Below, piece by piece: positions 1,371-19,505 of a stretch of DNA of 21,008 nucleotides. The notes under the pieces were generated by a model, which was given only the letters and a program-made list of their open reading frames with translations, had not been told where the DNA came from and ran no database searches. Made by a program: the position numbers and the translations under genes. How positions within the stretch are numbered: position 1 is the first letter of the stretch; each line of letters opens with the position of its first letter. The DNA comes from a virus (lineage: Duplodnaviria > Heunggongvirae > Uroviricota > Caudoviricetes), in IMG/VR virus record IMGVR_UViG_2671180458_000004. One strand, given 5' to 3'.

Positions 1371-1384
1371 ATTTGCCCTCCGCA

Positions 1385-1408: not shown

Positions 1409-1413
1409 ACCGT

Positions 1414-3494: not shown

Positions 3495-3669
3495 ACCGGC
3501 AGCATAAGCCGGGAATTTTCAGGGCGGGTTTTGCGGGATTTCAGGAAGTATTTTCAGGGAAAAATGCAAAGGCGCTTCACGCAGATTTTAAAGCCCGTTA
3601 AATACAGGTTAGAAAATCACGACACGCGCCTGAAGGGGGTAAGGTAATGCATTTGCATACCTTAAACAA
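3495..3669 (-). promoter_or_regulatory. Candidate late promoter region upstream of I, with three direct TTTCAGG repeats
   Basis: 175-bp ORF-free gap; TTTCAGG on the plus strand at 3517-3523, 3539-3545 and 3552-3558; short inverted repeat ATGCA-TT-TGCAT at 3647-3658; position corresponds to Mu late promoter P_I. Confidence 0.4.
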
Positions 3670-4143: not shown

Positions 4144-4170
4144 ATTGCCTCCGCATAAAGGATGAATATA

Positions 4171-4265
4171 AAATAAACAGGCGGTCAGTGTACGCTTAAC
4201 TGGTAAAGTCGGTGCCTGCCTCCGGGTGGATCATGTATGCGGGTTCGACCCCCGCCACTGACCGT
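4171..4265. other. Structured element in the F-G gap: long closing stem plus an inner hairpin with a tRNA T-arm-like loop; terminator-like on the minus strand
   Basis: Plus strand: GTCAGTG (4184-4190) pairs perfectly with CACTGAC (4256-4262); inner hairpin GCGGG-TTCGACC-CCCGC (4239-4255). Minus strand: the structure is followed by CTGTTTATTTTATATT. Confidence 0.35.
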
Positions 4266-5596: not shown

Positions 5597-7178
5597 CCAG
5601 CATCCCCTTCATTTCCGCAGCAAACATGGCATCACTGAGCAGCGTCATCAGGCGGGAATCATCCATTTCACGGTAAAGGGCAGGCAGGTCTGCCAGTGCC
5701 TCCGCCAGCCCCCGCGTTCTGATGGCATCAATGACCGGCTCCAGTACCGGGTCGATGGCCTCCTGTAACCGACGGGCAGGCACCGCATCCCCCATGTCGT
5801 CCAGTTCATCTCGGGGGCTGCTCTTCGCTTCCGGCAGTCTGGCAGCCAGCGCTGTCTGCTCTGTCTTCTCCTGTTTTTCCGGTGGCATCTCTTTGTCTGT
5901 CTGAGCAGGTTCATTGCCACTCTGACGGACACGGAAGATGGCTTCGCCGGGCGTGGGCTGCGGAATACCCGTCTGCTCACGTATCCAGGGATCAGAAATA
6001 TCCATCCCCGTACTGAGCTGCATCACCGCACTGGTGATTTTGGTGATATCCCCCGGCTCTTTTGTCTGGAAACAGATACGCGGCAGGCGACGGATATCTA
6101 TGGCGTGGGCGGTGTTCAGGGCATACAGCGGATACACCAGATCGCGGTTCAGCGTGGCGGCCAGCTGACGTAAATCAGAATCCCTGATTTCCCGGCGCAC
6201 CTCGTTATGCACTTCACCCAGCGAGCGCGCGCCCTTGTCTCCGGCTTCCGTGGTCAGCGTGCCGCCGAGGATAGCTTTGGAGATGGAACGCTCCCCCCAC
6301 GAAATCATGGTTTCAAACGGATCGGCCTGACCGTTCGCTGCCGCCTGAAACTCCAGCGACATCCCGGCCGGGATGATCCCGCCTGTACGTCGCCCGATAT
6401 CCATCACCGCCCGCATCAGGGCGCTTTTCTGCTCCGGTGTTGCCCCGGACGGGTATTTACCGACCTTCATCGGCAGGCCGTACACCTCCAGAAATTCAGC
6501 CAGATCGCGCACGGAATAGTTTTTGAAAATGAACGGCCAGATAAGCGTTCTGACAAGCCCCGTCGCACCACCGTATCCAGTGCGTGAACGCGACTGATGC
6601 ACTATCCAGCCAAAGGGCTGAAACGCCACCCCGGCATGGCTGCCGTCACGCAGCCGCAGTTCGCTCAAATCATCCGGGTTAAGGCAGAAATGCCCGCTGT
6701 CACGCCAGCGGATGGCGCGGATGATGTGCATTTTACCGAGCATCCCGTGCTCAATCTCCATACAGGAATAGCCCTTCAGGATGGCATCGGTGGCATCAAA
6801 CAGCATGGCATCAAACCAGTCGGCGGAATGAAGATATTCGTCGAGCATTTCCGCGTCCTTTTTCTCATTCGCGCTGGCGTTCGGTGGCGGCTCAATACTC
6901 CAGGGCACGCCCTGAATGGCAAGACGTCGCTTGCCCAGCTCTGCAAAAAGGTGGGTATCCTTTTCTTCAATGTCAGCGGCCAGATCGGACTGGGCAATCA
7001 GATCGCCACGTTCAGCCCCGCGAAGGCACTGCGCCGCCCGGTTCGGGGTGATACCCGAGGCCGGATGTTCAATATAACGGCTGGCAATCTGCGGAATATC
7101 CAGCACGGCACTCTGCATCTCCGGATCAAAGGAGAAAGGTTTTCCGTCAAGATCAATTATGCGTCCCACTACCAGCAC
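5580..7178 (-). CDS. H: Portal protein (Mu gp29/H-like, DUF935)
   Basis: 532-aa ORF whose listed start is a GTG overlapping the terminase stop; an in-frame ATG at 7118 is an alternative, so the start is uncertain. Confidence 0.88.
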   Translation of the reverse strand: MLVVGRIIDLDGKPFSFDPEMQSAVLDIPQIASRYIEHPASGITPNRAAQCLRGAERGDLIAQSDLAADIEEKDTHLFAELGKRRLAIQGVPWSIEPPPNASANEKKDAEMLDEYLHSADWFDAMLFDATDAILKGYSCMEIEHGMLGKMHIIRAIRWRDSGHFCLNPDDLSELRLRDGSHAGVAFQPFGWIVHQSRSRTGYGGATGLVRTLIWPFIFKNYSVRDLAEFLEVYGLPMKVGKYPSGATPEQKSALMRAVMDIGRRTGGIIPAGMSLEFQAAANGQADPFETMISWGERSISKAILGGTLTTEAGDKGARSLGEVHNEVRREIRDSDLRQLAATLNRDLVYPLYALNTAHAIDIRRLPRICFQTKEPGDITKITSAVMQLSTGMDISDPWIREQTGIPQPTPGEAIFRVRQSGNEPAQTDKEMPPEKQEKTEQTALAARLPEAKSSPRDELDDMGDAVPARRLQEAIDPVLEPVIDAIRTRGLAEALADLPALYREMDDSRLMTLLSDAMFAAEMKGMLDGTGD

Positions 7179-8833
7179 CCCCGATCAAATTCATGATATG
7201 CCTCATCGTCATCACGATAACCGCCCTCCATTGCCCGCGACCGTTCCGGCAGCGCCTGACAGGCTGATTCATCCAGGATGAAGCCCTCCATGTATGACGC
7301 CCGGTTTGCCATACAGAGCGCCACGGCAAAATCGCCATGGCGGCGGGCGTTCACAGCCGTTGCGTTCTGGTCCTTCGTGCGCCCCTTGTCGATTTGCGGG
7401 ATACCGTTCACCACCTTCACATGGCGCAAATCATCAAGCGTGGTCTGATGGCGGGCGATGAGGATATTCTGATCCTCAAACTCGGCCTTCAGTTTTGGCA
7501 TCCACTCGCCGTACCACTTCGGCGATAACATCACGCAGTCGATGATGTCCGGGCCAAAGGCCAGCAGCGCGGCTTCGGCCAGATAGCCGCCGTTACCGGT
7601 GGCGTCGAACGCCGCACCGACCAGCGCCGGAACGCGGGTCAGGATGTACATCATCACCTGCTCCTGCTGGGCATACGGCAGGTTGCGCAGCTCCACGCGA
7701 AACACCTCGCGTTTTGCCAGGGATTCAGTGATTTCCAGCAGCACAAAGCAGGAGAGGTCACCGGTGCGGGCAAAGTCTTCCCCGAAGCTGAAGCGGGAAC
7801 GGGAATTTAACGCCTCTAAAAGCGGTTTTAAATGTTCTTCACACCAGGTTAAAACCTCCGATTCACGCAGCCATGCGGCACGGCTGATGAAGTCGTCCGG
7901 GGCTTCAAACGTCAGAATCGGGATGTCGCGGATCATCGCCATTTCAATAAGTGCGTGAGGAATATAGGCACCGCCGGACTTTTTCGGGATACAGCCGTAT
8001 TCCTCGTCGGCATCCTCACGGGTCGGGGCGTTTTTGTAGAGATCATCACGCCACTTCTGCTCGCTTTCCGGTGACCATTCGCGGCCGGTGACATAACAGA
8101 TACGACGGTACAGCCCGTCCGCAATGGCATCATCCAGGGTAATGCGGTGGACGCTGTAATCCTTGCGCCCCTCGCGGGCTTCCTGAATGTACTGATTAAA
8201 CAGATTATCGACGCCGTTATGCGTGGAGATAATACGCACGCGCGCGCCCCACATGGTAAGCGCCATTGCCGCCTTGAGAAGTTCATCCAGTGACTCGTGG
8301 AACGCGGCTTCATCAATCACCACATCCCCCTGAAGGCCGCGCAGGTTTGACGGACGGGAAGACAGTGCCTGAATTTTGAATCCACTGTTCGGAAAGCGGA
8401 TCATGTAGGTCAGAATTTCTTCTTTTTTATCCCGATCCCAGAAGGTCTGCTCATACACATCAGCATCTGCCAGCTGGTTAAAGGCACGGGAGAACAGGGC
8501 GCAGGCAGAAATATATTCCAGCGCCATCTCCTGCTTTGACCCCACATAAAACACATTGCGGCCACCGCGCCGCTTCGGTTTTGCAGCGGTAATGACGTTA
8601 CGCCCGGCTTCCGCCCAGGTAAGCCCGGTACGGCGGGATTTTTCCGCGATGCAGACCTCGCTTTCATCCTCAAACCAGCGGGCCTGATAATCCAGAAACA
8701 CCGGCATATCACCGGGCAAATCAAGGCTGTCCGGCACATCCACGCCCAGCAGGGCTTTTTCACCGGCCAGATCAATTTTGCGGGTGGAGACGGTATTCGT
8801 CAGTAAGGGTGAGAGTTCTTCGGCGTTATTCAT
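7169..8833 (-). CDS. Terminase large subunit (Mu gp28-like)
   Basis: 554 aa; ATPase N-terminal half and nuclease-like C-terminal half recognised by recall of Mu-type terminases; directly upstream of portal. Confidence 0.9.
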   Translation of the reverse strand: MNNAEELSPLLTNTVSTRKIDLAGEKALLGVDVPDSLDLPGDMPVFLDYQARWFEDESEVCIAEKSRRTGLTWAEAGRNVITAAKPKRRGGRNVFYVGSKQEMALEYISACALFSRAFNQLADADVYEQTFWDRDKKEEILTYMIRFPNSGFKIQALSSRPSNLRGLQGDVVIDEAAFHESLDELLKAAMALTMWGARVRIISTHNGVDNLFNQYIQEAREGRKDYSVHRITLDDAIADGLYRRICYVTGREWSPESEQKWRDDLYKNAPTREDADEEYGCIPKKSGGAYIPHALIEMAMIRDIPILTFEAPDDFISRAAWLRESEVLTWCEEHLKPLLEALNSRSRFSFGEDFARTGDLSCFVLLEITESLAKREVFRVELRNLPYAQQEQVMMYILTRVPALVGAAFDATGNGGYLAEAALLAFGPDIIDCVMLSPKWYGEWMPKLKAEFEDQNILIARHQTTLDDLRHVKVVNGIPQIDKGRTKDQNATAVNARRHGDFAVALCMANRASYMEGFILDESACQALPERSRAMEGGYRDDDEAYHEFDRGCW

Positions 8834-9414
8834 CAGGCTTTACCCAACAGAATCCCCTTAATACGGGACTCAAGCTGTTCACTCATCCCGTCCACGCCGC
8901 GCAGCTCGTCGGTGACCGCGTTTGCCATCTCTTCAGCAAATGCGGCCCGGATTTCTTTTTCACGCTTAATGCTGCGCTCGGCGGCACTTTCCGCACGCTG
9001 TGCTGACAGGAGGATGTCTTTGATGAGGCGCATATCCACGTCGCTGTCGCTGTTCAGAGATTCGGTCGCGGCACGCAGGCGGCGGTACATCAGGGCGCGG
9101 GACATTTCCAGAATCAGCGCTGTGGTTTCACCGGTTGGCTTGTCCCCCAGTTCGGCCATCATGGCTTTTGTCTGCTCGCGTAAATCACGCAGGTTACGGG
9201 CAATCAGCTCATTACGGGAGGCTTCCCGGCTGATGGCCGCCGGTGAAAGCTGCTGCTCTTCCGGCAGGCCCGCCTCACGGATCAGACGGTTGATTTCCTC
9301 GCGGATCTGGACCTGCGTCAGACGTTTTTCACGCAGCATTTCCAGCAGCGGCTTACGGATGCTGTCGGGGAGCAAATCCACCTTGCGTACACGACCACGC
9401 GTCGGCTTGTCCAT
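8833..9414 (-). CDS. Terminase small subunit (Mu gp27-like, DUF3486-type)
   Basis: 193 aa, charged and helical; AAGGGGGT RBS; its stop overlaps the large-terminase start (ATGA). Confidence 0.75.
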   Translation of the reverse strand: MDKPTRGRVRKVDLLPDSIRKPLLEMLREKRLTQVQIREEINRLIREAGLPEEQQLSPAAISREASRNELIARNLRDLREQTKAMMAELGDKPTGETTALILEMSRALMYRRLRAATESLNSDSDVDMRLIKDILLSAQRAESAAERSIKREKEIRAAFAEEMANAVTDELRGVDGMSEQLESRIKGILLGKA

Positions 9415-9416
9415 CG

Positions 9417-9707
9417 TTACCCCCTTGCGCGTGGTTTCTTCACACCCGGAACGCAGGCCCGGCCTTCCGCCACATCCTGCCCCCGGCCGGTCAGCTCTGC
9501 GATGAAATAACCGTTAATCAGAACGCGTTTGCGCACCAGTCCCTGCTCGGCAAGCCAGGCAATGTGGGTGTGAACGGTGTCGCGGGACACGCGGTGGCCG
9601 TAATCATCCAGACAGTCCTGGAGCACGGATTCACCCAGTTCACCGTTGTAATCTGCCAGCGACCGCAGAATGACCAGACGCTGATCTTCAGTAATGAAAT
9701 CACTCAT
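9417..9707 (-). CDS. Mu gp26-like small protein (96 aa), possible winged-helix fold
   Basis: Position between the gp25-like gene and terminase; ATGA coupling at its start; assignment positional. Confidence 0.6.
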   Translation of the reverse strand: MSDFITEDQRLVILRSLADYNGELGESVLQDCLDDYGHRVSRDTVHTHIAWLAEQGLVRKRVLINGYFIAELTGRGQDVAEGRACVPGVKKPRARG

Positions 9708-10012
9708 TGCGTTTTTTTCCTTACAGCCTGCTCCAGCAGCAGTTCGTTCTGATAGGAGACAGAGCGGAGCGTGGCGTTCGTGGTTTTCAGTTCACCCCGC
9801 AGGGTCACGATTTCCACATTCAGACGGTTGACCTCGGCTTCTGTCGGCAGTGACGACAGGCGGGTTTCCACCTTCTCAACGCGGTCGGAGAGTTTTTCAA
9901 AGGCCTCGCGGGGGACAAACGTTTTGCGCATCAGCGCCATGAATATCCCGCCAGCGGTTGCCGTCGCCGAAAGGATCGGCACAACATAATCTTTAACGAT
10001 GCTGACCCACAT
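9704..10012 (-). CDS. Mu gp25-like membrane-tethered protein (DUF2730-like), candidate releasin
   Basis: 102 aa; N-terminal hydrophobic helix then a coiled-coil-like cytoplasmic part; sits where Mu gp25 lies; 20-nt overlap with the upstream gene. Confidence 0.6.
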   Translation of the reverse strand: MWVSIVKDYVVPILSATATAGGIFMALMRKTFVPREAFEKLSDRVEKVETRLSSLPTEAEVNRLNVEIVTLRGELKTTNATLRSVSYQNELLLEQAVRKKTQ

Positions 10013-10220
10013 GACGGGCCTCCATGATGTTCTGGCAGTTCACACAACGGATGGCATCCGGCACCGCAACAAGACGTGCGGCGGGGATCTCTCCGCCACA
10101 GTCTGCGCAGACACGTCTGCCCGGAGCATCCATTGCCCGGCGCTTACGTGTCAGCCGGTTACAAAGGGCGCGTTCTGATCCCCGCTCCATCACAGCCTGA
10201 GCACGATCTGAATCATCCAT
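9993..10220 (-). CDS. TraR/DksA-family C4 zinc-finger protein (Mu gp24 position)
   Basis: Four Cys as CxxC-x17-CxxC (CADCGGEIPAARLVAVPDAIRCVNC); start moved to the ATG at 10220 (AGGAAA RBS), giving about 75 aa. Confidence 0.8.
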   Translation of the reverse strand: MDDSDRAQAVMERGSERALCNRLTRKRRAMDAPGRRVCADCGGEIPAARLVAVPDAIRCVNCQNIMEARHVGQHR

Positions 10221-10230
10221 ACCTTTTTCC

Positions 10231-10602
10231 TTACTTCGTCTTTCCTGCCGGAACAGCAGGCGTTCCGGCCATATCAGTAAATTCATGTTGTCGCCGCGCC
10301 TCCAGACGACGAATACTGGCCTTGTCCACGTTGCAGTTCTTGATCACCGCCAGCAGTTGCAGGTTGTAAGTGACCGATGCCCCAAACGTGAACGGCTCCG
10401 GCGCAGGAGGGACCAGGCAGTCAGCCAGCCATTCAGCGGGGATCGGCACCGGCTTCACAGGCACGTATTTCACAGACGGCCCGGCGCACCCGGTCAGCCA
10501 CATCATCAGGAACAGGGACAGAGGCCGCAGGCACTGCTGCCAGCGACCGGCGGACAACGCTCTGCTGCTCCTCGCTGTGCTGAATGTTCTGTTGTTTTTC
10601 AT
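10231..10602 (-). CDS. o-spanin (Rz1-like outer-membrane lipoprotein), overlapping the i-spanin gene in another frame
   Basis: Lipobox L-T-G-C followed by a Pro-rich mature region with C-terminal cysteines; starts inside the i-spanin gene and runs past its stop. The ATG at 10602 (GAGG upstream) gives an unusually long pre-lipobox region; an in-frame TTG near 10557 is an alternative. Confidence 0.6.
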   Translation of the reverse strand: MKNNRTFSTARSSRALSAGRWQQCLRPLSLFLMMWLTGCAGPSVKYVPVKPVPIPAEWLADCLVPPAPEPFTFGASVTYNLQLLAVIKNCNVDKASIRRLEARRQHEFTDMAGTPAVPAGKTK

Positions 10603-10783
10603 TCGTGGCCGCCTCACTGATTTGTGAAATGAGTTGCAGGGTGTGCTGCTGATTTGCCAGCACCTGACGCGCCTCATCCCGCTCACGCACAAGCACCTGA
10701 TTATTGTCTTCAAGGCGCTGTGTCTTCTGGTGCATTCCCCATATCGCGGCAACCAGTACAGCGATAATCCCCAGCGCCGCCAT
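10433..10783 (-). CDS. i-spanin (Rz-like inner-membrane spanin subunit)
   Basis: N-terminal TM segment then a long coiled-coil-like periplasmic region. The listed ORF start at 10954 would overlap lys by 59 nt, so the ATG at 10783 is taken; a GTG near 10822 is an alternative. Confidence 0.6.
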   Translation of the reverse strand: MAALGIIAVLVAAIWGMHQKTQRLEDNNQVLVRERDEARQVLANQQHTLQLISQISEAATNEKQQNIQHSEEQQSVVRRSLAAVPAASVPVPDDVADRVRRAVCEIRACEAGADPR

Positions 10784-10895
10784 GCACGCCCCGGCAATCA
10801 GGGCCGGTAAGGCATTATTCACCGCAGCCACAGGACACCCCGTAACAGCAGTACCGCACACAGCAGCGCTATCATGAGCGGTCGCCAGAAGCGGT

Positions 10896-11396
10896 TCAGA
10901 CTTTCGGCAAGTCGTAGCGACATAACCATTCATCCGCCGAACGGCGGGCCTCAAGGCCGGGGAGTTTCACCCCCTTTGAATAAATCCAGCGGATATACTG
11001 CTTACAGGACGCGGGCATCTGCCCGGCATTGATCAGGCGCAGAAGCGTGGAGTTGCGGAAGTTCGTTTCACCGGCCCAGAAGATCCACGAAGCCAGCGCC
11101 ACCGTCTGACCACGGGTAAGCGGCACCTGAACACGCCGATCAATGGCCGCAAAGGCCCATTTCATGTCCTTTTCCAGCAGTTCCAGGCATTCTTCATCCG
11201 TCAGGGTCATACCCGGTTTCACATCCGGGCCGGTATGGCCGTAACAGATGGTGGGTGTACCGGTGGGATCGATATACGTGGAGTTTTCTTTCCCTTCCCA
11301 GTAACCGGTGTAATGCGTGGCAATCGTGAACGTCCCGGCACCGGCCAGAACAAGGGCAATCAGCTTTTTACGCAGTGGTGCGGGGAGTTTTGGCAT
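10896..11396 (-). CDS. lys: Endolysin, T4-lysozyme-like (GH24) with N-terminal signal-anchor-release domain
   Basis: 166 aa; basic N-terminus MPKLPAPLRKK followed by a Gly/Ala-rich weakly hydrophobic stretch; catalytic spacing E-x8-D-x5-T in YWEGKENSTYIDPTGTPT. Confidence 0.9.
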   Translation of the reverse strand: MPKLPAPLRKKLIALVLAGAGTFTIATHYTGYWEGKENSTYIDPTGTPTICYGHTGPDVKPGMTLTDEECLELLEKDMKWAFAAIDRRVQVPLTRGQTVALASWIFWAGETNFRNSTLLRLINAGQMPASCKQYIRWIYSKGVKLPGLEARRSADEWLCRYDLPKV

Positions 11397-11467
11397 TGTT
11401 ACGCTGTCTCATGATGTTCTCTGAGTCAGCGTAACGGTGAAGGAAAGGCGGCAGGCTTTGCGGAATA
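11397..11467 (-). promoter_or_regulatory. Candidate activator-dependent late promoter / 5' leader of lys, with a 9-bp inverted repeat
   Basis: 71-bp gap between the mor stop and lys ATG; perfect inverted repeat GTTACGCTG (11398-11406) / CAGCGTAAC (11427-11435), 20-bp spacer, left arm abutting the lys start; position analogous to Mu Plys. Confidence 0.4.
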
Positions 11468-11893
11468 TCAGAAAAGTGGCGGTTGCGTTCTTGCCAGATG
11501 CAGACGGCGCTGTTCGCGTATGACGGTATAAATCTGGGTTTCTGACATCCGGTAATGGCGGCGAAGGGATTCAATTTTCTCGCCCCGGTCCCAGCGCGAA
11601 AATATCTCATTGTTTCGCAGCTCGGCAAAGAGAGATTCCCCGACCGGCAGGTAATAACCCCGTCCGCCCATATAGGCTGCCTGAGCCGCAGCCACCTTGC
11701 GTGCCAGTTTACCGGCCAGTACCGGCTCAATCCCCTGACGCTGAAGTTCTGCGCCAGTGACTTCAACCAGTTCTGACAGGGTCCGCGGCCAGTTCTTTTT
11801 GAGAACATCATCAGGGATGTCATCAAGGCGGTCGATAAGGGCGTGCAGTTGCTCACTGTCACCACCAAACATGCTCATCTGAGTTTCTGCCAT
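11468..11893 (-). CDS. mor: Mor/C-family transcriptional activator (middle/late gene activator)
   Basis: 141 aa, the size of Mu Mor (129 aa) and C (140 aa); GGAGG about 6 nt upstream; located between gemA and lys. Confidence 0.85.
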   Translation of the reverse strand: MAETQMSMFGGDSEQLHALIDRLDDIPDDVLKKNWPRTLSELVEVTGAELQRQGIEPVLAGKLARKVAAAQAAYMGGRGYYLPVGESLFAELRNNEIFSRWDRGEKIESLRRHYRMSETQIYTVIREQRRLHLARTQPPLF

Positions 11894-11925
11894 ATCAGCC
11901 TCCGGTTCTCGCGTTCCCGGTAAGT

Positions 11926-11958
11926 TTAAAATAAAAATCCCGCGTTGTGGCGGGATTT
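11926..11958 (-). terminator. Rho-independent terminator/attenuator between gemA and mor
   Basis: Perfect 9-bp stem AAATCCCGC/GCGGGATTT (11935-11943 with 11950-11958) around a 6-nt loop; on the minus strand it is followed by TTTTATTTT; begins 4 nt after the gemA stop. Confidence 0.7.
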
Positions 11959-11962
11959 GGGG

Positions 11963-12472
11963 TTAACGGGGAAGTGATTTTTCATACTGCCTGCAAACGG
12001 CGTCATACCCCATCAGCGTGCGTTCGGGCATTCCCATCGCGGCCAGCATTTTGCGGCGGTGCCATCGCTTGAGACGCTCCAGCACATCTGAGGCCAGGGC
12101 GGGGTGTTGCTCCAGCCACTGCCAGTTTGCCACACCTTCGCCGCCGTTTTGCGCGGCCGTCTGCGATTTCACCCAGCGGTTAAGGGCGGTTTCCGCACCA
12201 TCAGAGATAAAGCCCTGCCGGTGCATCACCTTCCAGATGGCGCGAATTTTAGCGGTCACCGTACCCGGTTTTAAGGCCCGGTTAACCGGGTTCTGACGCA
12301 CTTTAAAACCGCGTTTTTTGAAAACATCCAGCACGCGGGACAACTCATCCGGTGACATATCCCGGCAGCTGGTTTTGCCGGTGGCTGCCAGCAGCACGAA
12401 TGTATAAGTCTCATCATCCAGGGCAAGCTCGCGCTTTGCCACATGAATGGCGGATATCAGTTTTCCTCTCAT
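11963..12472 (-). CDS. gemA: GemA-family protein (Mu gp16-like, DUF1018)
   Basis: 169 aa; N-terminal MRGKLISAIHVAKRELALDDETY pattern recalled as typical of Mu GemA homologs; sits just upstream of mor as in Mu. Confidence 0.8.
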   Translation of the reverse strand: MRGKLISAIHVAKRELALDDETYTFVLLAATGKTSCRDMSPDELSRVLDVFKKRGFKVRQNPVNRALKPGTVTAKIRAIWKVMHRQGFISDGAETALNRWVKSQTAAQNGGEGVANWQWLEQHPALASDVLERLKRWHRRKMLAAMGMPERTLMGYDAVCRQYEKSLPR

Positions 12473-12765
12473 ACCGTATTTACCTTTTTACGGACATGGA
12501 AAGCCTTTTCTGCCTCATCCCACCGGGCATGGTGTGTTGGCGGAATAATCATTATGTGCCAGCCATCTCTGGTTGTTATCCGGCAGAAAAATTCACCGCT
12601 ATATAACACAATGGCCTGCTGAATGAGCGCATCAGCCGCCCGTTCAACCGGATATCTTTTATCAAAAAAGCAGATGATTTTTCGACATAACCACCGGGTA
12701 ATAACAAATGCACCGAAAAAGGATGTGATATATAAGCACCAGAACAACAGAGAACTATTGTCCAT
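12469..12765 (-). CDS. Hypothetical protein with N-terminal transmembrane helix (98 aa)
   Basis: AAGGAGAAAG RBS; hydrophobic N-terminus LLFWCLYITSFFGAFVITRWL; ATGA coupling into gemA. Confidence 0.6.
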   Translation of the reverse strand: MDNSSLLFWCLYITSFFGAFVITRWLCRKIICFFDKRYPVERAADALIQQAIVLYSGEFFCRITTRDGWHIMIIPPTHHARWDEAEKAFHVRKKVNTV

Positions 12766-12952
12766 TATCTTTCTCCTTATTCACTCTTCTTCGGCATTCG
12801 GCACAGTCATCAGGGCTTTCAAATGTATCCGGCTCGCGATTATGAGCCAGATATAACCACCGTCCACATATACTGATATTTTCGCCTGTTTTAAAAAAAT
12901 GATGCTTCCTGGCCATTAGTGGCCGCGCCCATCCAGCGGGTAGACTATTCAT
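12755..12952 (-). CDS. Hypothetical small protein (65 aa) with Cys/His residues
   Basis: GGAGGATAAAGCAA RBS; overlaps both neighbouring genes by a few nt; C-x(6)-H-x(12)-C-x2-C pattern could bind a metal (speculative). Confidence 0.55.
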   Translation of the reverse strand: MNSLPAGWARPLMARKHHFFKTGENISICGRWLYLAHNREPDTFESPDDCAECRRRVNKEKDNGQ

Positions 12953-13280
12953 TTGCTTTATCCTCCATGCTGGACAGAATCATATGTATTAATGTCGGGC
13001 GTGGAGATATACGCATTTCATTAAGCGTCTGAAGGGCAGCAACAGCTGCCTGTTTATCGGTGCCTTTGGCTATCTCTGCAAGAGAATGCACAATCCATAA
13101 CGGACTTAACGCCACGGCTGAATCCAGAATCATGTCATCCATAATAATTTCTGGCATATCCCGCTTGTCACATTCTTTATCTATAAAAGAAACGATTTTT
13201 TCTGCATCTTCCGGTTTCATGCCTCCGGCGATGAGAATTTTACGATATTCATAAGGCGATCTTAATTCAATACTCATCAT
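12945..13280 (-). CDS. Hypothetical acidic protein (111 aa)
   Basis: GGTGA-type RBS immediately upstream of ATGATG; lies in the low-GC stretch. Confidence 0.6.
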   Translation of the reverse strand: MMSIELRSPYEYRKILIAGGMKPEDAEKIVSFIDKECDKRDMPEIIMDDMILDSAVALSPLWIVHSLAEIAKGTDKQAAVAALQTLNEMRISPRPTLIHMILSSMEDKANE

Positions 13281-13292
13281 TCACCTGCCTGT

Positions 13293-13661
13293 TTAATCAG
13301 TTTCCAGTGCTTTGCTACGGGCAACAGCCTCACACTCAAAAAATACCGACTCCGGCACACGCTCCTTTAATTCACGAACAAGAAAATCATTAACGAGCTC
13401 ATGACGTCTTATATTTCTTTCCTTTTCCTCCTGGCGCAATACAGCAAGGCGGTATTCAACAGTCCGGCGTTGTTTCTGAAAGACAGCCAGTGCTTTTCTG
13501 GCAGAGTTACGCCATGTATCATCGCCACAGGGTTCGTATTCAAGCTGAAATTTAATCTCTTCAATGGTTTCTTTTATTTTTGCCAGCAAGCTAAGACAGT
13601 CGCTGATTGTCTTCAGTTTTTCATTATCAATATAACTTCTCACGCATTCACCTCCCGTCAT
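13293..13661 (-). CDS. Hypothetical protein, probably coiled-coil (about 122 aa)
   Basis: ORF 13293..13685 begins at a GTG; the ATG at 13661 forms an ATGA overlap with the upstream stop and is preferred. Heptad-like charged pattern in the C-terminal half. Confidence 0.55.
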   Translation of the reverse strand: MTGGECVRSYIDNEKLKTISDCLSLLAKIKETIEEIKFQLEYEPCGDDTWRNSARKALAVFQKQRRTVEYRLAVLRQEEKERNIRRHELVNDFLVRELKERVPESVFFECEAVARSKALETD

Positions 13662-13969
13662 TCCGGTAAAGCTGAAATATGACACCAGTGCGTCACCTGT
13701 CCGTCCTCATCTTCAAGGCAGGCTCCGGTTTCTTCATCAACAAAAAAGCCTTCATACCCCATATGGCCGATGCGCAGTTCCTGCCTGTGACCATACTGAA
13801 CAATCAGCACGACAGCCTCCATATCAGGCGGGAAAGCATCATTCAGTGAATGCCAGGGATAACCGCGCAAATCCCCGAAATAAACACCGGTCAGCGTTCC
13901 GCCACAGACCGGCATTCCGGCGGCACACACAAGAGGTTCATCTGATTCAACAAATAAGGTGGTTATCAT
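13658..13969 (-). CDS. Hypothetical strongly acidic protein (103 aa)
   Basis: ATGA-coupled start; many more acidic than basic residues by manual count; C-terminal EDEDGQVTHWCHISALPE. Confidence 0.6.
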   Translation of the reverse strand: MITTLFVESDEPLVCAAGMPVCGGTLTGVYFGDLRGYPWHSLNDAFPPDMEAVVLIVQYGHRQELRIGHMGYEGFFVDEETGACLEDEDGQVTHWCHISALPE

Positions 13970-14193
13970 GATGCCATTTGCTCCTGTATTTTCTGGCGTA
14001 AGTTTTCAATTTCTGCCGCCATATAAAAACCAATTTTGCTCCAGACATCAGCATCATCACCATGTTCTTCCAGCTCCATTACCGCCATTAAACACGCATC
14101 CTGCCAGTCACTGCTGTTATCAGTTACCGCCACTGAAAATGATGTACTGTCATGTCTGTTAATTATGACGACTGGCTTTTCAATTTTTCTCAT
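13966..14193 (-). CDS. Hypothetical small acidic protein (75 aa)
   Basis: GGGAGG about 6 nt upstream; ATGA coupling to the next gene; rich in Asp/Glu. Confidence 0.6.
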   Translation of the reverse strand: MRKIEKPVVIINRHDSTSFSVAVTDNSSDWQDACLMAVMELEEHGDDADVWSKIGFYMAAEIENLRQKIQEQMAS

Positions 14194-14375
14194 TTATGCC
14201 TCCCGGAAATACGAATGTATATACCGATGAGAAAATCCATAATAAACAGGAAGAGCGACATCCTGATAAAGAACCAAATGTCAGGCATCATGGACAGGTT
14301 TCCTGTAATCGCAAATATAAAACCAATCCCCAACACCGGAACGATAATTGCGAAAAATATAAGTCGTTTAATCAT
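14190..14375 (-). CDS. Small predicted membrane protein (61 aa, two hydrophobic helices)
   Basis: Sequence is almost entirely two hydrophobic stretches separated by a short polar loop; ATGA overlap with the upstream stop. Confidence 0.6.
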   Translation of the reverse strand: MIKRLIFFAIIVPVLGIGFIFAITGNLSMMPDIWFFIRMSLFLFIMDFLIGIYIRISGRHK

Positions 14376-14923
14376 GGCATTAACTCCCGTAATACAACAT
14401 CCTCGGCAGTCCGGCGATGGTGATAAATAAAATTCACCGTACTCTCGGATAATTCAAATTTCTCGCCTATTTCCCGGAAGGTAAGACGTCGTGGTGATTC
14501 AGCATCCCGTAATTCACGAATAAGATGAACATCATCGTCAGGTATACGGGTGAAGGGCAGCAATTCTCCGTATTTTTTCATGCTTACGCCAATATATCGC
14601 GCCCGATTGTGGACAGAATCCCGGTCTCGCCCCAGATATTCTCCTATTTGCTTACCGGTCATCGTTCTGGCATTTTTTCGGATAAATTTATCTTCATCAT
14701 GTTTAAATCTTGGACGTTTGCATTTGAGCAACTCCGGGTAAGTACCGCGTAATAAAACAATCCGGTTATGTACACCCCAGAAACTTCTTTTTACCCTGAC
14801 AGCAATATCCTTAACCGGGGTGGATGGATAAAGCGCAATCAGCAGTGCATCTTCTTCAGGTGTCCACGCACGGACATGAGCGGGTGCACGGCCTTTTCGC
14901 CCCATGGGTTGTAAAATCATCAT
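14372..14923 (-). CDS. Putative DNA-binding protein with several HTH-like segments (183 aa)
   Basis: AGGGGGTGA RBS; Myb/SANT-like WTPEEDALLIALY near the N-terminus, a central TGKQIGEYLGRDRDSVHNRARYIGV and a C-terminal LTFREIGEKFELSESTVNFIY segment. Confidence 0.65.
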   Translation of the reverse strand: MMILQPMGRKGRAPAHVRAWTPEEDALLIALYPSTPVKDIAVRVKRSFWGVHNRIVLLRGTYPELLKCKRPRFKHDEDKFIRKNARTMTGKQIGEYLGRDRDSVHNRARYIGVSMKKYGELLPFTRIPDDDVHLIRELRDAESPRRLTFREIGEKFELSESTVNFIYHHRRTAEDVVLRELMP

Positions 14924-14926
14924 ACA

Positions 14927-15442
14927 TCACCCCCTGACTCGCTTTTCAGCAGCATAAAACTCATCAGACAGAATTTCGGTCATTTTCCGTTTTGCGGAAT
15001 CATCTTCGCACTGAAGGTAAATAACATCGTCAACGCAGAACCACTTCACGGGACCATGCAATATTGCTGAAAAGTCAATGCCCAGCCAGAACAACAGGGC
15101 ATCGGTTCTGGCATACGTGACGGGCGAATATTCACGCCACAGACTGTTAAGTTCGTCAGAGGCAACGCGCAGGGCTTTGGGAATACGTGATGTGCGCGGT
15201 GTGCAGCTCCAGCCATTCGACGCAGTCGGTTTTCGCCATAAGTCGCGATGAAAAGGATATTTGTCATCCATAAAGCGCAGCCCTTTAAAACAAAAGCCAC
15301 TGATACCGGATACAAATACCGACCGGCACGCAACATTCAGCACGGCCTCAAGGCGTTTTGCCTCATCCTTAACTTTCTGGCAGTCCTGCTGATATTTTTT
15401 CCACGCGGCCAGCGCGGAAGGGTTTGATGTTTTAAAGAACAT
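14927..15442 (-). CDS. Hypothetical protein (171 aa)
   Basis: Translationally coupled to the upstream gene (TAATG); no recognisable motif. Confidence 0.65.
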   Translation of the reverse strand: MFFKTSNPSALAAWKKYQQDCQKVKDEAKRLEAVLNVACRSVFVSGISGFCFKGLRFMDDKYPFHRDLWRKPTASNGWSCTPRTSRIPKALRVASDELNSLWREYSPVTYARTDALLFWLGIDFSAILHGPVKWFCVDDVIYLQCEDDSAKRKMTEILSDEFYAAEKRVRG

Positions 15443-15975
15443 TACGCCACCTCCGCAGATATCCCGGCAGGCGCGGCCGTCCGGTCAACAATCAGGTAAC
15501 GCAGAACACGCGCGGTGATATTCCAGCCGCTTAAACCGCAGATGATGACACCCAGGCGTATGTCGATATACGCCATCACAAACTGGGGCACGCCTTCTTT
15601 CATGGCCTGCTCATCAACTTCAGCCACCACATAAACGGTTTCGCAGGTCAGTACGCCCTGAGCAAATTCCCACGCCATCGACGGAATATCATGCCCCTCA
15701 ATCCACGGCAGGGACTTTCTGAAGCTGCACCACTGAACATCATCAGCCGCACATTCCTGGCTGCATTTGCGACGAACCGGCTGCACCGGGCGGGGACGCG
15801 GAATATCATAAAAACCGTTACATTCCGTCAGCACCCCGGCATCAACCGCATCACGCAGAAAATAAACCATCGAGGATGGCGGCATATTCATTTTTTCAGC
15901 CAGAACACCGCAGGTCAGACGTCCGTAAATACGCAGCCAGTTTTTAACCCCTTCAAGCACTTTTGCATCAATCAT
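15442..15975 (-). CDS. Hypothetical protein (177 aa), possible N-terminal winged-helix-like segment
   Basis: GGAGG about 8 nt upstream; stop and next start overlap as TAATG; the helix-turn-helix impression is by eye only. Confidence 0.65.
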   Translation of the reverse strand: MIDAKVLEGVKNWLRIYGRLTCGVLAEKMNMPPSSMVYFLRDAVDAGVLTECNGFYDIPRPRPVQPVRRKCSQECAADDVQWCSFRKSLPWIEGHDIPSMAWEFAQGVLTCETVYVVAEVDEQAMKEGVPQFVMAYIDIRLGVIICGLSGWNITARVLRYLIVDRTAAPAGISAEVA

Positions 15976-15978
15976 GAA

Positions 15979-16521
15979 TTATTCCTCCGTCAGCGCCACA
16001 TATTCAGAATGTTTAATTTCCTGGCATTCTTCAGGAATACACCCGTTTATTTCCCTGCCATAAGCGCCTACTTTAAACACCACGCACAGGGCATCACGGG
16101 AGAGTGACGGGGTCCACCAGGAGTCCGTGTTAAACATGGAGGGGATTCTCATTACCCCCAGCTTTTCACAGAGCCAGACAAGGAAATCAGGACGCTTTCT
16201 TAACTCGCGTTCAGCGGCTTCAACCATTGCGGCAATCGCCGGACCTTCAGGGCATGACTCATCAGGTCTGGCAATAAAGCACGGTCCGCCCCCGATAAAA
16301 GCCACATCATCGCGCTTACGCCAGCCCGCAGGCAGAGAACCAGAAAAATAAAACTCACTGATTACGTCCATGGCGAACGGCTTTAAGCGCAATCCGGCAG
16401 CGCCTGTATTTTTCAGTAATGCCCGAAGAATACTGTTGCGTAGCGGTAAAACAGTCTGTTGATATTTGGTGAAATATTTATTTGTCTGTACACGGTCTAA
16501 TTTGAAATAAAAATATGCCAT
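15979..16521 (-). CDS. Hypothetical protein (180 aa), accessory block
   Basis: AAGGAACAGGA RBS; first gene after the 97-bp gap downstream of gam; no family recognised. Confidence 0.65.
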   Translation of the reverse strand: MAYFYFKLDRVQTNKYFTKYQQTVLPLRNSILRALLKNTGAAGLRLKPFAMDVISEFYFSGSLPAGWRKRDDVAFIGGGPCFIARPDESCPEGPAIAAMVEAAERELRKRPDFLVWLCEKLGVMRIPSMFNTDSWWTPSLSRDALCVVFKVGAYGREINGCIPEECQEIKHSEYVALTEE

Positions 16522-16618
16522 ATTTCCTGTTCCTTATTTTCAGTTTACAGGCGCAGGCAGTCCCCTGACGCGAGCGCCATAATTAAAACGAAGTGATATT
16601 TAAAGATTTAATGCGGTG

Positions 16619-17149
16619 TTATTTATTCAGTCCGGCGTCCTGTTCAAAAGGCTCGACATGAAAACTTTCAGCACCTTTATTCACCTTAATACCAGCAACC
16701 CCTTTCACCGCATCCGGCTCCGCCAGGACAGCTTGCTTATTCACTTCCTCTTTCGTGCGGATGAAGCGCTCAAGCCCCATACGACGCAGCATTTCAATCA
16801 CACCTTCCACATCACGACTGACGCTGCATGATGGATTTCCCAGCCGCCATGACACCGTTCCGGTGGTCAGATTGGCAGTTTTGGTTTCGCCGCCGTTCGT
16901 CAGCTCATTGCGGTTGGTTTTACACCAGTCATGAATCCCCTTAAAAAGCACTTTGATTTCTTTTTTAAGGTTTTCAATCTGCGGCGTATAACGGGCGGTG
17001 ATTTCTGCCACTTCATCATTCATTGCCGTTTCCAGGCGCAGCGCCTCTCGCTGAATATCGCCCAGGGTGCGGATATCGCGGCTGACCTCTTCACGGGTCT
17101 GCGGTGCCGCCTCTGCTGCGGCCTTTAATTTTGTAACGCGTTTTGCCAT
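16619..17149 (-). CDS. gam: Host-nuclease inhibitor Gam (Mu Gam family, Ku-like DNA end-binding protein)
   Basis: 176 aa, the size of Mu Gam; sequence recalled as Gam family; AAGGAAAAA RBS upstream of the ATG. Confidence 0.85.
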   Translation of the reverse strand: MAKRVTKLKAAAEAAPQTREEVSRDIRTLGDIQREALRLETAMNDEVAEITARYTPQIENLKKEIKVLFKGIHDWCKTNRNELTNGGETKTANLTTGTVSWRLGNPSCSVSRDVEGVIEMLRRMGLERFIRTKEEVNKQAVLAEPDAVKGVAGIKVNKGAESFHVEPFEQDAGLNK

Positions 17150-17160
17150 TTTGTTTTTCC

Positions 17161-17454
17161 TTATTGCAATGTATCTGGTCCGTTCTGAACAGAACGGCGT
17201 TCAACGGAGCTGCTTACCCCCATGGCCTGCATGGAACCCTGTAGTTCATCTGTCAGAAACTGAATGATTGTGGGGCTGTGATATTTAAGAATTTGTGCAT
17301 AAACATCACAGGGTCCTGCCGGTCTGTTCTCTGTATCACGTTCGATTTTTACCGTGGCAGTAACCCCCTCCGTGATTTCCTTACTATCATTACCGGCTGG
17401 CTTTACTTCATGCATTACGTGGTCAAATTCAAAAATAACGCGTACTTTGCTCAT
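17161..17454 (-). CDS. Hypothetical early protein (about 97 aa), paralog of the adjacent gene
   Basis: Start moved to the second ATG (17454): it aligns with the paralog's N-terminus, has AGGGG about 8 nt upstream and avoids a 23-nt overlap. Confidence 0.6.
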   Translation of the reverse strand: MSKVRVIFEFDHVMHEVKPAGNDSKEITEGVTATVKIERDTENRPAGPCDVYAQILKYHSPTIIQFLTDELQGSMQAMGVSSSVERRSVQNGPDTLQ

Positions 17455-17458
17455 GGAA

Positions 17459-17731
17459 TTACCCCTGTTGATTAAATTCATTACCGTTAATAACCCCGGA
17501 ACTCATGTCCATATCTTTCATGAGCGCACTGGCTTTCATTGCCACAAGTTCAGCAAAGTCTCTGCTTTCCGCGAGCATAACCACCCCAAAAATCATGGCG
17601 GGTCCATCACCTTTCTGCTTTATCCCGGTTGAACGTATGTCCAGACTTACCCCCATGCGCACTGTTCCATCAGCGTTTTTATGGATAACGTGCTCCTTGT
17701 ATTCGAAAATAATGCGTACGACTTTACTCAT
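17459..17731 (-). CDS. Hypothetical early protein (90 aa), paralog of the adjacent gene
   Basis: N-terminus MSKVVRIIFEYKEHVIHK resembles MSKVRVIFEFDHVMHEVK of the 17161..17454 product; C-terminal MKDMDMSSGV versus MQAMGVSSSV. Confidence 0.6.
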   Translation of the reverse strand: MSKVVRIIFEYKEHVIHKNADGTVRMGVSLDIRSTGIKQKGDGPAMIFGVVMLAESRDFAELVAMKASALMKDMDMSSGVINGNEFNQQG

Positions 17732-18009
17732 CCTCTGGTCCTCGTTCTGTTTGGATAACTGACCCGGCGTCTGACCTCACGGCAGAACCGAATCATGGCA
17801 TTAAAGGCTTCTTCCTCCGTCACCGCTTCCGGTATCCCCGGAACCAGTAACTGCTCCTGTTCATCACGTCCATGACGCGCCATAACCTCAATCACATGCC
17901 GTACTGTGGCAGGCTTTCCGGCAACTATCGGCAATGCACCTTCCGGCAGGACGTAACCCAGTTCAATGAGACCGCTCGACCACGCCCACGCAATTAGATT
18001 TCGTTTCAC
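17728..18009 (-). CDS. Hypothetical early protein (93 aa), GTG start
   Basis: GTG at 18009 preceded by GGGAGGAG; stop overlaps the next start (ATGA). Confidence 0.55.
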   Translation of the reverse strand: MKRNLIAWAWSSGLIELGYVLPEGALPIVAGKPATVRHVIEVMARHGRDEQEQLLVPGIPEAVTEEEAFNAMIRFCREVRRRVSYPNRTRTRG

Positions 18010-18010
18010 C

Positions 18011-18265
18011 TCACTCCTCCCAGTAAACCGTGCAGCCGCTGATGCGGGTAGCCTTCACACGGCGGCGCAGGCCGTTGGTCTGTATGGTGATTTCAATTTC
18101 ACCGGTTCCCTTAACTTCGCTTACCGGCGGCGTGGTTTTCAGGGCATAACGTTGTGGGTAGCGTTTGCTGCGTTCCAGTACCGCACCGGCAAGTTCAGTC
18201 AGACGGCGTGCACTGTTCAGGGAGTCGAATAAATTCATTTTTTTACCGCAGGATTGCATATTCAT
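18011..18265 (-). CDS. Hypothetical early protein (about 84 aa)
   Basis: ORF 18011..18277; the internal ATG at 18265 is preferred because GAGGTG lies about 5 nt upstream; the stop is 1 nt before the next gene's start. Confidence 0.5.
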   Translation of the reverse strand: MNMQSCGKKMNLFDSLNSARRLTELAGAVLERSKRYPQRYALKTTPPVSEVKGTGEIEITIQTNGLRRRVKATRISGCTVYWEE

Positions 18266-18277
18266 ATAACACCTCAT

Positions 18278-18505
18278 TTAGCTGACTTGTTTCGCACCAA
18301 CAGAACGGCATATTCCGCTGTAAACTTCTGTCGCACCTTCGCGATCAAGTCCGGCAGATATCACCATTCGTGTGCGGTCATTAAATTCAAAAAGTAAATC
18401 GCCACATTCTTTATTTTCGGCCAGTGAAATCACCTTCACGTTATCGAAATTAACCAGGTAAAAGCGTCCGTAAATATCAGGAATATTAAATACCGCCATA
18501 ATCAC
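18278..18505 (-). CDS. Small early protein at the kil position of Mu (75 aa); function not established
   Basis: GTG at 18505 overlaps the B stop (GTGA); an in-frame ATG at 18499 with AGGTG upstream is an alternative start. Kil-like only by position and size. Confidence 0.5.
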   Translation of the reverse strand: MIMAVFNIPDIYGRFYLVNFDNVKVISLAENKECGDLLFEFNDRTRMVISAGLDREGATEVYSGICRSVGAKQVS

Positions 18506-19434
18506 ACCTGTGAGAGTAATTCAGGGTTGGTATAAACCTCTTTAAAGGCCGCATTAATATGTTTTTCTGTCAGCGCCGCGCCTTCACCGCTGGCGGTGAG
18601 CCACGCCTGGTTAAGCGTATGTGTCAGAACGCGTAACGCTCCCGGCTTTTCAGCGATAGCCTGCATGACGGCCAGCTCGGCCTCACCACTGATCCCCCAC
18701 GCCCTGGCAATGGCCAGCACATCCGCCTTTTTGGCCTTGCGAAGTTGTTTTGTACGGGCAAGACGGCTGAACAGGCGCGATAAATCATCAAAGGCGCGGC
18801 GTCCACCTTTAAACAATCCGCGCGGGTTACCAATAAGCACCATCCCGATCCCCGTGGCGTCCTGAATTGCCCGGAGTTGCTCCAGACCGTCAATACCAAG
18901 ATGATCCGCCTCATCCACAATCACCAGTCCACGCGTTCCCATCAGGCGACGGCGGATGGCGCGGGATAATGCCCCTTTGTTCGCGCGGGTGTAATCAATC
19001 CCCAGCGCATCGGCCAGCTCCAGCAGACACTCCGTGACGCTGGAGTGCGCGGGTGACAGGGTGATCATCCAGGTGTTTGGTTGCTCCTGGCAGTAATTAC
19101 GGGCAGTGGCCGTTTTACCCACACCCGGTACGCCCACAATAACGTTAATACAGCCCATCAGACGAACCGCCTGAAACAGTGTGCGCAGCTCCTGGACTGT
19201 CTGCGTTTCCACAAACTGCGGCGGTTCCGGCAGTGCGCTTTGTTTATTCCAGTTCTCATACCAGGAACGCAGGGAAGCAGCCACAGCAGCGTTATCGCCT
19301 TTATATTTTCCCTTACGGAAAGCCGATAATGTGCCGTCGGAAATTCCCGCCTCTCTGGCGATGGCATACTGCGTCAGTACGCCGCCATCAATAAGTTCAT
19401 CAATGGTCTTGATTACATCGTTAATATCAGTCAT
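18502..19434 (-). CDS. B: Mu B-type transposition target-DNA activator, AAA+ ATPase
   Basis: 310 aa; Walker A GVPGVGKT and Walker B-like LVIVDEADHL visible; N-terminal HTH-like segment; directly downstream of A; GAGG about 9 nt upstream of ATG. Confidence 0.92.
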   Translation of the reverse strand: MTDINDVIKTIDELIDGGVLTQYAIAREAGISDGTLSAFRKGKYKGDNAAVAASLRSWYENWNKQSALPEPPQFVETQTVQELRTLFQAVRLMGCINVIVGVPGVGKTATARNYCQEQPNTWMITLSPAHSSVTECLLELADALGIDYTRANKGALSRAIRRRLMGTRGLVIVDEADHLGIDGLEQLRAIQDATGIGMVLIGNPRGLFKGGRRAFDDLSRLFSRLARTKQLRKAKKADVLAIARAWGISGEAELAVMQAIAEKPGALRVLTHTLNQAWLTASGEGAALTEKHINAAFKEVYTNPELLSQV

Positions 19435-19469
19435 ATTATTAACCTCTCATTTGATACCTTGTTTAATCA

Positions 19470-19505
19470 AATAACCTGAGTCGCCGCTCGGGTTATTTTT
19501 TTATT
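19470..19505 (+). terminator. Terminator-like hairpin in the A-B gap, oriented for the plus strand (antisense to the genes)
   Basis: About 11-bp stem (19470-19480 with 19487-19497, one G-U) around loop TCGCCG, followed on the plus strand by TTTTTTTATTT; on the minus strand no U-tract follows. Confidence 0.4.

Follow-up and report, generated by a model that had tools for sequence, protein, structure and literature searches.

A probable hypervariable accessory-gene slot in the early operon of an Sp18-type Mu-like prophage of Escherichia coli

Mu-like phages of Pseudomonas contain low-GC (guanine plus cytosine) regions of genomic plasticity with accessory open reading frames (ORFs), including genes for anti-CRISPR proteins (Cazares et al. 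2014, PMC4378225). Variable anti-defence genes have been described as clustering in the accessory regions of phages (Silas et al., bioRxiv 10.1101/2023.04.06.535777), and the early gene E6/Mup07 of phage Mu corresponds to gnarl2, which is tied to the modification of lipopolysaccharide/O-antigen (bioRxiv 10.1101/2023.04.06.535777; PMC12373910). Here we analysed a block of seven small genes at positions 12469-14375 of a 21,008-nucleotide stretch of viral DNA (IMG/VR record IMGVR_UViG_2671180458_000004), the whole of which we call the window. We call the seven cassettes m61, a75, a103, c116, a111, z65 and t98 in the order of the operon. A preliminary description of the sequence had regarded the block as a horizontally acquired moron. 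Our analyses indicate that it is probably a hypervariable slot for accessory genes in the distal early operon of an Sp18-type Mu-like prophage, at the position of gp13-gp15 in Mu.

The window represents such an Sp18-type prophage of E. coli, and all the genes of interest are on its minus strand. From high to low coordinates, the early part comprises transposase A and B, small genes, Gam, the genes of 180-, 177- and 171-residue proteins (g180, g177 and g171) and that of a 183-residue protein with a Myb/SANT-like helix-turn-helix (HTH), hereafter the Myb gene. The seven block genes follow, then gemA, a hairpin terminator, the gene of a Mor/C-family activator, the lysozyme gene and the late genes. 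On the high-coordinate side the block is thus bordered by an early HTH gene and not by head genes as initially proposed. Because the backbone genes are homologous to those of phage Mu, with identities of 68% for gp11, 53% for gp12, 55% for Gam, 49% for B and 43% for GemA, the block occupies the gp13-gp15 position; RefSeq labels the 171-residue protein 'Mu-Gp12 family'.

The interval 12300-15000 is 99.6-99.7% identical to Mu-like prophages of two bovine E. coli genomes. Many further genomes match it at 93-98% with gaps, among them that of O157:H7 Sakai with Sp18, which is annotated as a Mu-like prophage, and 233 matching records come from 232 of 5,426 complete E. coli genomes. The best match to the block in the phage database is LC727881.1 (65127-67820, 99.7%), annotated as a Mu-like phage inserted within an Stx2c-converting prophage, i.e. 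a prophage inside a prophage.

Slot content among related prophages

We compared the loci by tblastn searches with the seven proteins in six annotated E. coli prophages, 36 IMG/VR loci recovered with GemA and four contigs that carry a75. At least eight architectures and at least 11 cassette families were found over about 45 loci, in slots of 632-1907 nucleotides. In all the loci with enough flanking sequence, the homologues of Myb, gp12 and gp11 are upstream and GemA is downstream. No case of a Myb gene directly abutting gemA was found among the sampled relatives, whose slot is always filled.

The Sakai type, or type A, consists of m61-a111-z65-t98 in about 1.03 kb (12 IMG/VR loci and Sakai Sp18). 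Type B harbours a103-c116-a111-z65-t98 in 1.50 kb (four IMG/VR loci and CV261), and type D is reduced to a103-t98 in 0.63 kb (two IMG/VR loci and M1). Type C (1.05 kb, seven IMG/VR loci) comprises a103, a 46-residue zinc-ribbon ORF, a 100-residue ORF and a reverse ORF; its forward ORFs show 92% identity to Mu gp13 and 50% to Mu gp14. The 1.44-kb slots of type E (seven IMG/VR loci and JE86) contain a103-c116, a truncated a111 (a111') and a reverse-strand gene of the DUF2513 family. Four contigs are mixed, with m61-a75-a103 and C-type or E-type tails. Lastly, all seven cassettes are present together, in 1.9 kb, in the window, in OkiPb01678 and OkiPb01712 from bovine E. coli and in the Mu-like insert of phage Stx2c_JNE082796, and the slot of the window is the longest version among those sampled.

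Relative to CV261 and M1, m61 and a75 are inserted exactly at the ATGA where the stop codon of the Myb gene overlaps the next start codon. The proteins encoded upstream of the slot (g180, g177, g171 and Myb) are 100% identical to those of CV261, and the seven encoded inside it match those of OkiPb01678, two of them (c116 and a111) at 99% and the other five with full identity. With these two different partners on either side of the border, the window looks recombinant. Repeats in 12300-15000 are short and at chance level, and none resembling recombination sites was found at the cassette borders.

A Sakai-type slot does not appear to be a simple deletion derivative of the window type, as the sequence after m61 shares only ~8 nucleotides with the start of a75 and then diverges. 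In Sakai Sp18 (locus L003, 7978-8017), an ATG overlapping the m61 stop codon is in frame with the a111 homologue and would add 14 residues (MRKITTLSELQEMN) to the annotated 110-residue protein. This extension begins with the same codons (MRKI) as a75 of the window.

Homologues outside the immediate relatives were sought by tblastn of the concatenated proteins against 50,697 phage records. Those of c116 occur in lambdoid and Aeromonas phages (42% identity), and in the lambdoid phage Fraca the gene adjoins xis/int. Homologues of z65, up to 63% identical, are found in Klebsiella, Pantoea, Shigella and Pseudomonas phages, often beside genes for DNA methyltransferases or ParB-like proteins. The closest is a 65-residue gene product encoded next to a DNA methyltransferase gene in Klebsiella phage K70PH128C1, and others are present in Sf11, swi2 and PSA25. 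For a75, the matches are in phi467 and in Escherichia phages of roughly 108 kb (Cyrano, CMS-2020a and PhiR41_1), in regions annotated with Ea22, Eaa and Eae-like genes. The protein a111 is related to gene 14 of SfMu and of Yersinia Mu-like phages at 33% identity (E=2e-5 for SfMu_14), which is in the same slot of that Muvirus. Apart from a few distant homologues, a103 was found only in E. coli and Salmonella, in their Mu-like prophages. The cassette families each have their own outside kin, in lambdoid, SSU5-like, Klebsiella and Mu phages.

Slot content differs among close relatives cassette by cassette, with genes joined at start/stop overlaps, and we propose that it is drawn from a pool shared among phages. 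Low GC probably reflects an AT-rich gene pool common to enterobacterial temperate phages, together with the rapid turnover of the slot. The products might be small, dispensable host-modifying or counter-defence factors, like other Mu early accessory genes (Gam, Kil and E6/gnarl2).

Reverse-strand genes recur at the downstream end of the slot. The DUF2513 gene (136 residues) is directly upstream of gemA in locus L005 (7241-7651) and also in L027, L051 and L052, and Mu too has a reverse-strand gene, gp15, directly upstream of gemA. A gene on the opposite strand within the early operon could be expressed in the lysogen. Other spots of the early region vary as well, at 15979-16521, 17161-17481 and 17459-18009 (minus strand). 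In five of the six annotated relatives, a 106-residue early protein has no more than about 57-61% identity, the genes of 93- and 90-residue early proteins are missing in strain M1, and that of the 180-residue protein is missing in JE86-ST05. The early region therefore holds several plasticity sites and not one alone.

Gene layout, coding evidence and predicted expression

The coordinates are collected in Table 1. As the preliminary description had stated, the seven genes are small and coupled, and they are preceded by Shine-Dalgarno (SD) sequences. They are tightly packed, with a GGAG/GGAGG-like motif before all seven starts. ATGA overlaps are found at the junctions of the 183- and 61-residue genes, 61 and 75, 75 and 103, and 98 and gemA. 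Longer overlaps of 8 and 11 nucleotides occur at the 111/65 and 65/98 junctions, respectively, and short gaps of 14 and 12 nucleotides separate 103/116 and 116/111. The mechanically defined ORF of c116 has 130 codons, and the RefSeq form of 116 residues starts at a GTG with GGGAGGTGA before it; the latter form is the better choice.

Table 1. Coordinates in the window of the seven cassettes, the two flanking genes and the terminator-like hairpin
Feature	Coordinates	Strand	Remarks
Myb/SANT-like HTH gene, 183 residues	14372..14923	-	conserved upstream flank of the slot; GC 0.457, part of the low-GC zone
m61, 61 residues, predicted small hydrophobic membrane protein	14190..14375	-	ATGA overlap with both neighbours
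a75, 75 residues, acidic	13966..14193	-	free-standing copy of the N-terminal module of Eae-like phage proteins
a103, 103 residues, strongly acidic	13658..13969	-	net charge -14, isoelectric point (pI) 4.3
c116, 116 residues, predicted helical, coiled-coil-like, GTG start	13293..13643	-	PHROG 6158 at 1.8e-57
a111, 111 residues, mildly acidic	12945..13280	-	PHROG 1988 at 1.6e-43
z65, 65 residues, Cys/His-containing	12755..12952	-	PHROG 2358 at 4.7e-34
t98, 98 residues, predicted N-terminal hydrophobic helix	12469..12765	-	PHROG 17269 at 2.4e-33
gemA (Mu gp16 family)	11963..12472	-	conserved downstream flank; GC jumps to 0.567
Intrinsic terminator-like hairpin	11935..11958	-	5 nucleotides past the gemA stop; 9-bp stem with 5 GC pairs, then TTATTTT

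In keeping with the initial assessment that the genes are probably real, the ratios of non-synonymous to synonymous differences (pN/pS), calculated for orthologues at 80-98% nucleotide identity, are between 0.05 and 0.40 for m61 (0.19 relative to Sakai), a103 (0.05-0.13), c116 (0.14-0.18), a111 (0.13-0.35) and t98 (0.09-0.40). These values show that five of the seven cassettes are under purifying selection. The differences between the z65 copies are nearly all synonymous, with too few changes for a test, and the 75-residue gene has near-identical nucleotide copies only. The protein identity of a75 with the N-terminal module of longer phage proteins (43-53%) supports its being a coding sequence.

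Two of the seven products are predicted to be small membrane proteins and three to be soluble and acidic; the remaining two are a putative zinc-binding protein and a predicted coiled-coil protein. Hydrophobic windows cover residues 1-58 of m61, whose maximal Kyte-Doolittle mean over 19 residues is 2.92, and the gene was found in 109 of 5,426 E. coli genomes, every time directly after the Myb gene. In t98 the hydrophobicity peaks at 1.82 over residues 5-23, and two alleles are found in the relatives, with about 98% and about 51% identity. The protein z65 is possibly zinc-binding: its HH, C29, C50 and C53 form an HH...C...CxxC pattern that is kept in the 63%-identical homologue. Weak PDB sequence matches give c116 its coiled-coil look; in PDB sequence searches with the a103 profile, a111, c116, z65 and the phi467 homologue of a75, nothing was significant.

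The sole rare cassette of the block is a75, present in three of the 5,426 complete E. coli genomes and forming a single cluster among 5.8 billion proteins. Its relatives are longer: it aligns with residues 1-70 of the 209-residue protein CUW01255 of phi467 (53% identity, E=4e-23) and with the 183-residue 'Eae-like' protein of phage Cyrano (43%, E=2e-17), and it is devoid of the coiled-coil and C-terminal parts of Eae-like proteins.

The end of a103 differs among relatives. In the window, CV261 and OkiPb01678 it stops at a TGA (13658-13663 in the window), and in loci L019, L023, L027 and L030 it runs 6-7 codons further (ALPE-L(Q/R)E...). In relatives in which c116 comes next, the a103 stop codon overlaps the GTG start of c116 as GTGA. 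The earlier stop in the window thus breaks this overlap and leaves the 14-nucleotide gap.

As for the flanks, the 183-residue protein matches PHROG 323 ('transcriptional regulator, D5-like', 1.9e-58), its HTH matches in Pfam are weak, and it is 31% identical to Mu gp9 over 101 residues. Its gene is found in all relatives, and its alleles fall into two classes, one about 96-98% identical and the other about 70%. GemA matches Pfam PF06252 at 1.2e-29. The only Mor/C-family gene between gemA and the lysozyme gene (11468-11893, minus strand) codes for a protein with 39% identity to Mu C, versus 27% to Mu Mor. Mu has both Mor and C in this stretch, and the middle/late regulatory cascade may therefore be shorter in the Sp18 type.

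With its genes uniformly oriented, overlapping and preceded by SD motifs, the block is most simply the distal part of the early transcript. Its co-expression with the early operon, as first suggested, is therefore probable from the layout. A crude consensus scan of 11300-19600 returned six promoter-like sites, all weak (9/12), versus 10.9 expected from shuffled sequences. In the same scan the hairpin behind gemA was the top-listed terminator-like hit and the only strong one on the minus strand, and the early transcript with the block genes probably ends there. The early transcript of Mu likewise ends just past gemA. We propose that, upon infection or induction, the early promoter would drive the block genes together with the rest of the early operon, that their translation would be coupled and that transcription would stop at the hairpin. 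The lysogen would not express them, and their expression would fall in the first minutes that follow infection or induction. No RNA family was found by an Rfam scan of the whole window.

Base composition and alternative explanations

The block was said to be AT-richer than its surroundings, which holds on the gemA side. Its GC content is 0.437, as compared with 0.569 for the late region (1-11396), 0.556 for the mor-gemA part and 0.537 for the whole window. Only 171 of 19,102 windows of the same length have a lower GC content, and all of them overlap the block, including the lowest (0.434), which starts inside it at 12640. One of the two AT-rich strings quoted in the preliminary description was located exactly at 13176-13200, and the other, with one mismatch, at 13140-13159. 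The codon-usage check agrees: GC at third codon positions (GC3) is 0.375-0.484 in the seven genes versus 0.51-0.675 in the late genes. As this gap is found at synonymous sites, low GC is not merely due to amino-acid content. The composition is truly foreign-looking.

Nevertheless, the low-GC zone is not confined to the block. It begins with an abrupt step at the gemA boundary, where the cumulative GC deviation is maximal at 12398, and it extends from ~12400 to ~18570, through the conserved Myb gene. On the high-coordinate side GC recovers gradually, and the contrast with the block is weak (0.457-0.49); the early region outside the block has a GC content of 0.489, and the MuB-to-gemA early region has a mean of 0.473. 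In the related slots, GC is 0.40-0.475 in 39 of 39 measured cases, and in most of them the 3 kb from gemA onward are at 0.52-0.57. Phage Mu has a similar dip, with 0.455-0.475 for gp13-15 between gp12 (0.525) and gemA (0.553), and genes 14 and 15 of SfMu are at 0.44-0.46. Low GC is thus a property of the slot whatever its content, in Mu as well.

Several points weigh against our interpretation of the block as an accessory-gene slot. The sampled relatives are mainly from E. coli and Salmonella, which makes the census of architectures incomplete, and the differences in content may reflect gains of cassettes here or losses in relatives. Scans of all seven proteins with Pfam, NCBIfam and PADLOC gave nothing usable, and their PHROG families are of 'unknown function'. 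The roles considered here for all seven proteins are predictions by analogy with other slots. Lastly, we infer expression from the early promoter from the gene layout alone, with a crude scan for promoters and terminators.

Other explanations concern first the acidic products. The 75-, 103- and 111-residue proteins had all been described as acidic. This is correct for a103, the most acidic protein of the window with three basic residues in 103, and for a75, which comes second (net charge -7, pI 4.5), whereas a111 (net charge -6, pI 4.9) is no more acidic than several late proteins. The a103 family is very small: an exhaustive profile search with a hidden Markov model in 1.84 billion sequences gave 13 representatives. 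One of them, a repeat protein that matches via 'DEDGPVTH', was judged spurious. DUF551 (PF04448) is no more than a lead for a103: a103 itself gave no match to it, and one of ten family members matched at E=0.025, under the gathering score. It is conceivable, though rather unlikely in our opinion, that a103 founds a very small family specific to enterobacterial Mu prophages and represents a new early-expressed protein that inhibits a DNA-binding factor of host defence or repair, by mimicry or otherwise, with a75 as a domain captured from Eae-like proteins to serve as a stand-alone inhibitor.

The more specific proposal that acidic products, above all a103 and perhaps a75, are early DNA mimics that inhibit host restriction, other DNA-binding defences or nucleoid proteins appears unlikely. 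The strong acidity of a103 is conserved in its family, with net charges of -9 to -18 and very few basic residues, including in members that are only 37-50% identical, its charge density is similar to those of small mimics such as UGI or AcrIIA4, and its gene is in an early-operon context within a slot of fast turnover. On the other hand, a103 showed no homology to Ocr or ArdA, nor to any family in Pfam, PDB or PADLOC, and no Pfam match to Ocr/ArdA or other families was found for the 75-, 103- and 111-residue proteins at E<=0.1. The AlphaFold2 model of a103, from a 12-sequence alignment, is all-beta and of low confidence (predicted local distance difference test score, pLDDT, 50.5), and one family member weakly resembles DUF551. 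That of a75, from two sequences, shows a beta-hairpin and two helices, also at low confidence (pLDDT 64.2). Neither of these low-confidence models had a Foldseek match in BFVD at E<=0.001. Moreover, the longer Eae-like proteins with an N-terminal module homologous to a75 are near-neutral as a whole, and the acidity of a111 is unremarkable. What stands of the original DNA-mimic speculation is therefore the conserved, strong acidity of the a103 family, which would fit a mimic of nucleic acids or some other inhibitor that binds proteins but is no evidence of either.

It is similarly improbable that some cassettes, e.g. those of the membrane proteins m61 and t98, are genes for lysogenic conversion or superinfection exclusion that are expressed from the prophage to the benefit of the host. 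Small membrane proteins of prophages often mediate exclusion, and both m61 and t98 are hydrophobic. An exclusion role has also been discussed for gnarl-type genes (PMC12373910). However, the two genes are co-oriented with the early operon, which by inference from Mu biology would be repressed in the lysogen if regulated as in Mu, and the signal for a separate promoter is not above chance.

The sharp GC step at gemA, the low GC3 and the length of the slot in the window notwithstanding, the arrival of all seven genes together as one moron, an autonomous add-on from a lower-GC donor, is highly improbable, since the relatives carry the cassettes in different combinations, the slot is AT-rich in every architecture as well as in Mu and SfMu, the outside homologues of c116, z65, a75 and a111 belong to phages of four different types, the crude scan gave no signal above chance for an internal promoter or terminator, and low GC runs on into the conserved 183-residue gene. 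Horizontal exchange is evident, and it is the single unit of the initial claim that is at odds with these data. The accessory-gene slot thus remains our preferred interpretation: the Mu family shares a standing hotspot for accessory genes, of which the block is the fullest version among those sampled.

Comparison with described systems

This interpretation corrects the reading of the GC anomaly, which marks a standing exchange hotspot in common with phage Mu and not one recent import. The slot is well bounded and highly plastic, and the Mu-like prophages to which it belongs are common in E. coli, including Shiga-toxin-producing strains. Comparable slots have been fruitful sources of anti-defence and host-modifying proteins, and the cassette catalogue, especially the a103 family, represents a shortlist for functional screens. 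Precedent favours host-modifying or counter-defence roles for such slots by analogy. We found no study of the block genes in the literature on Sp18 and the Mu early region.

Among small acidic proteins, Ocr and ArdA are phage proteins expressed early, like a103 and, less so, a75, whose early expression is probable. They differ from them in the lack of sequence homology and in the predicted folds, beta-rich for a103 and mixed for a75, according to models of low confidence. The charge density of Ocr is also higher than those of a103 and a75.

Lambdoid morons, in the definition of Hendrix and Juhala quoted in PMC4378225, are extra DNA of deviant composition inserted between genes that are adjacent elsewhere. 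The resemblance is best for m61 and a75, which are inserted in this manner relative to CV261 and M1, unlike the whole block. The composition is deviant on the gemA/late side and weakly so on the other side. The block differs from morons in that it consists of independently assorting cassettes inside an operon, and no flanking promoter and terminator of its own were detected by the consensus scan, which is crude.

The plasticity and accessory regions of other phages are closer. Like them, the slot has a fixed position between core genes and a content that varies among close relatives. The likeness extends to fixed hotspots in GC valleys, with ORFs of 34-100 codons that differ among close relatives. 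In those regions several genes proved to be anti-defence factors (PMC4378225; bioRxiv 10.1101/2023.04.06.535777; PMC12373910). The slot differs in its host and phage lineage, and no homology to anti-CRISPR or known counter-defence proteins was found in it by Pfam, PHROG and PADLOC searches.

The closest counterpart is the gp13-gp15 region of Mu itself (E14, E15 and gp15). When the seven proteins were compared by BLASTP with the early proteins of Mu, including gp13, gp14 and gp15, no match at E<0.01 was obtained, and the block genes belong mostly to other families than those of Mu, the distant tie being that between a111 and SfMu_14 (33%, by tblastn). The slot is also larger, with seven genes in 1.9 kb versus three in about 0.7 kb in Mu, and an extra Myb-like HTH gene is present between the gp12 homologue and the slot. 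Nevertheless, both regions follow the gp11/gp12 homologues and precede gemA, on the same strand and in the same operon, and both comprise small ORFs of unassigned function in a GC dip. Furthermore, sister prophages of the window carry homologues of gp13 and gp14 in this very slot.

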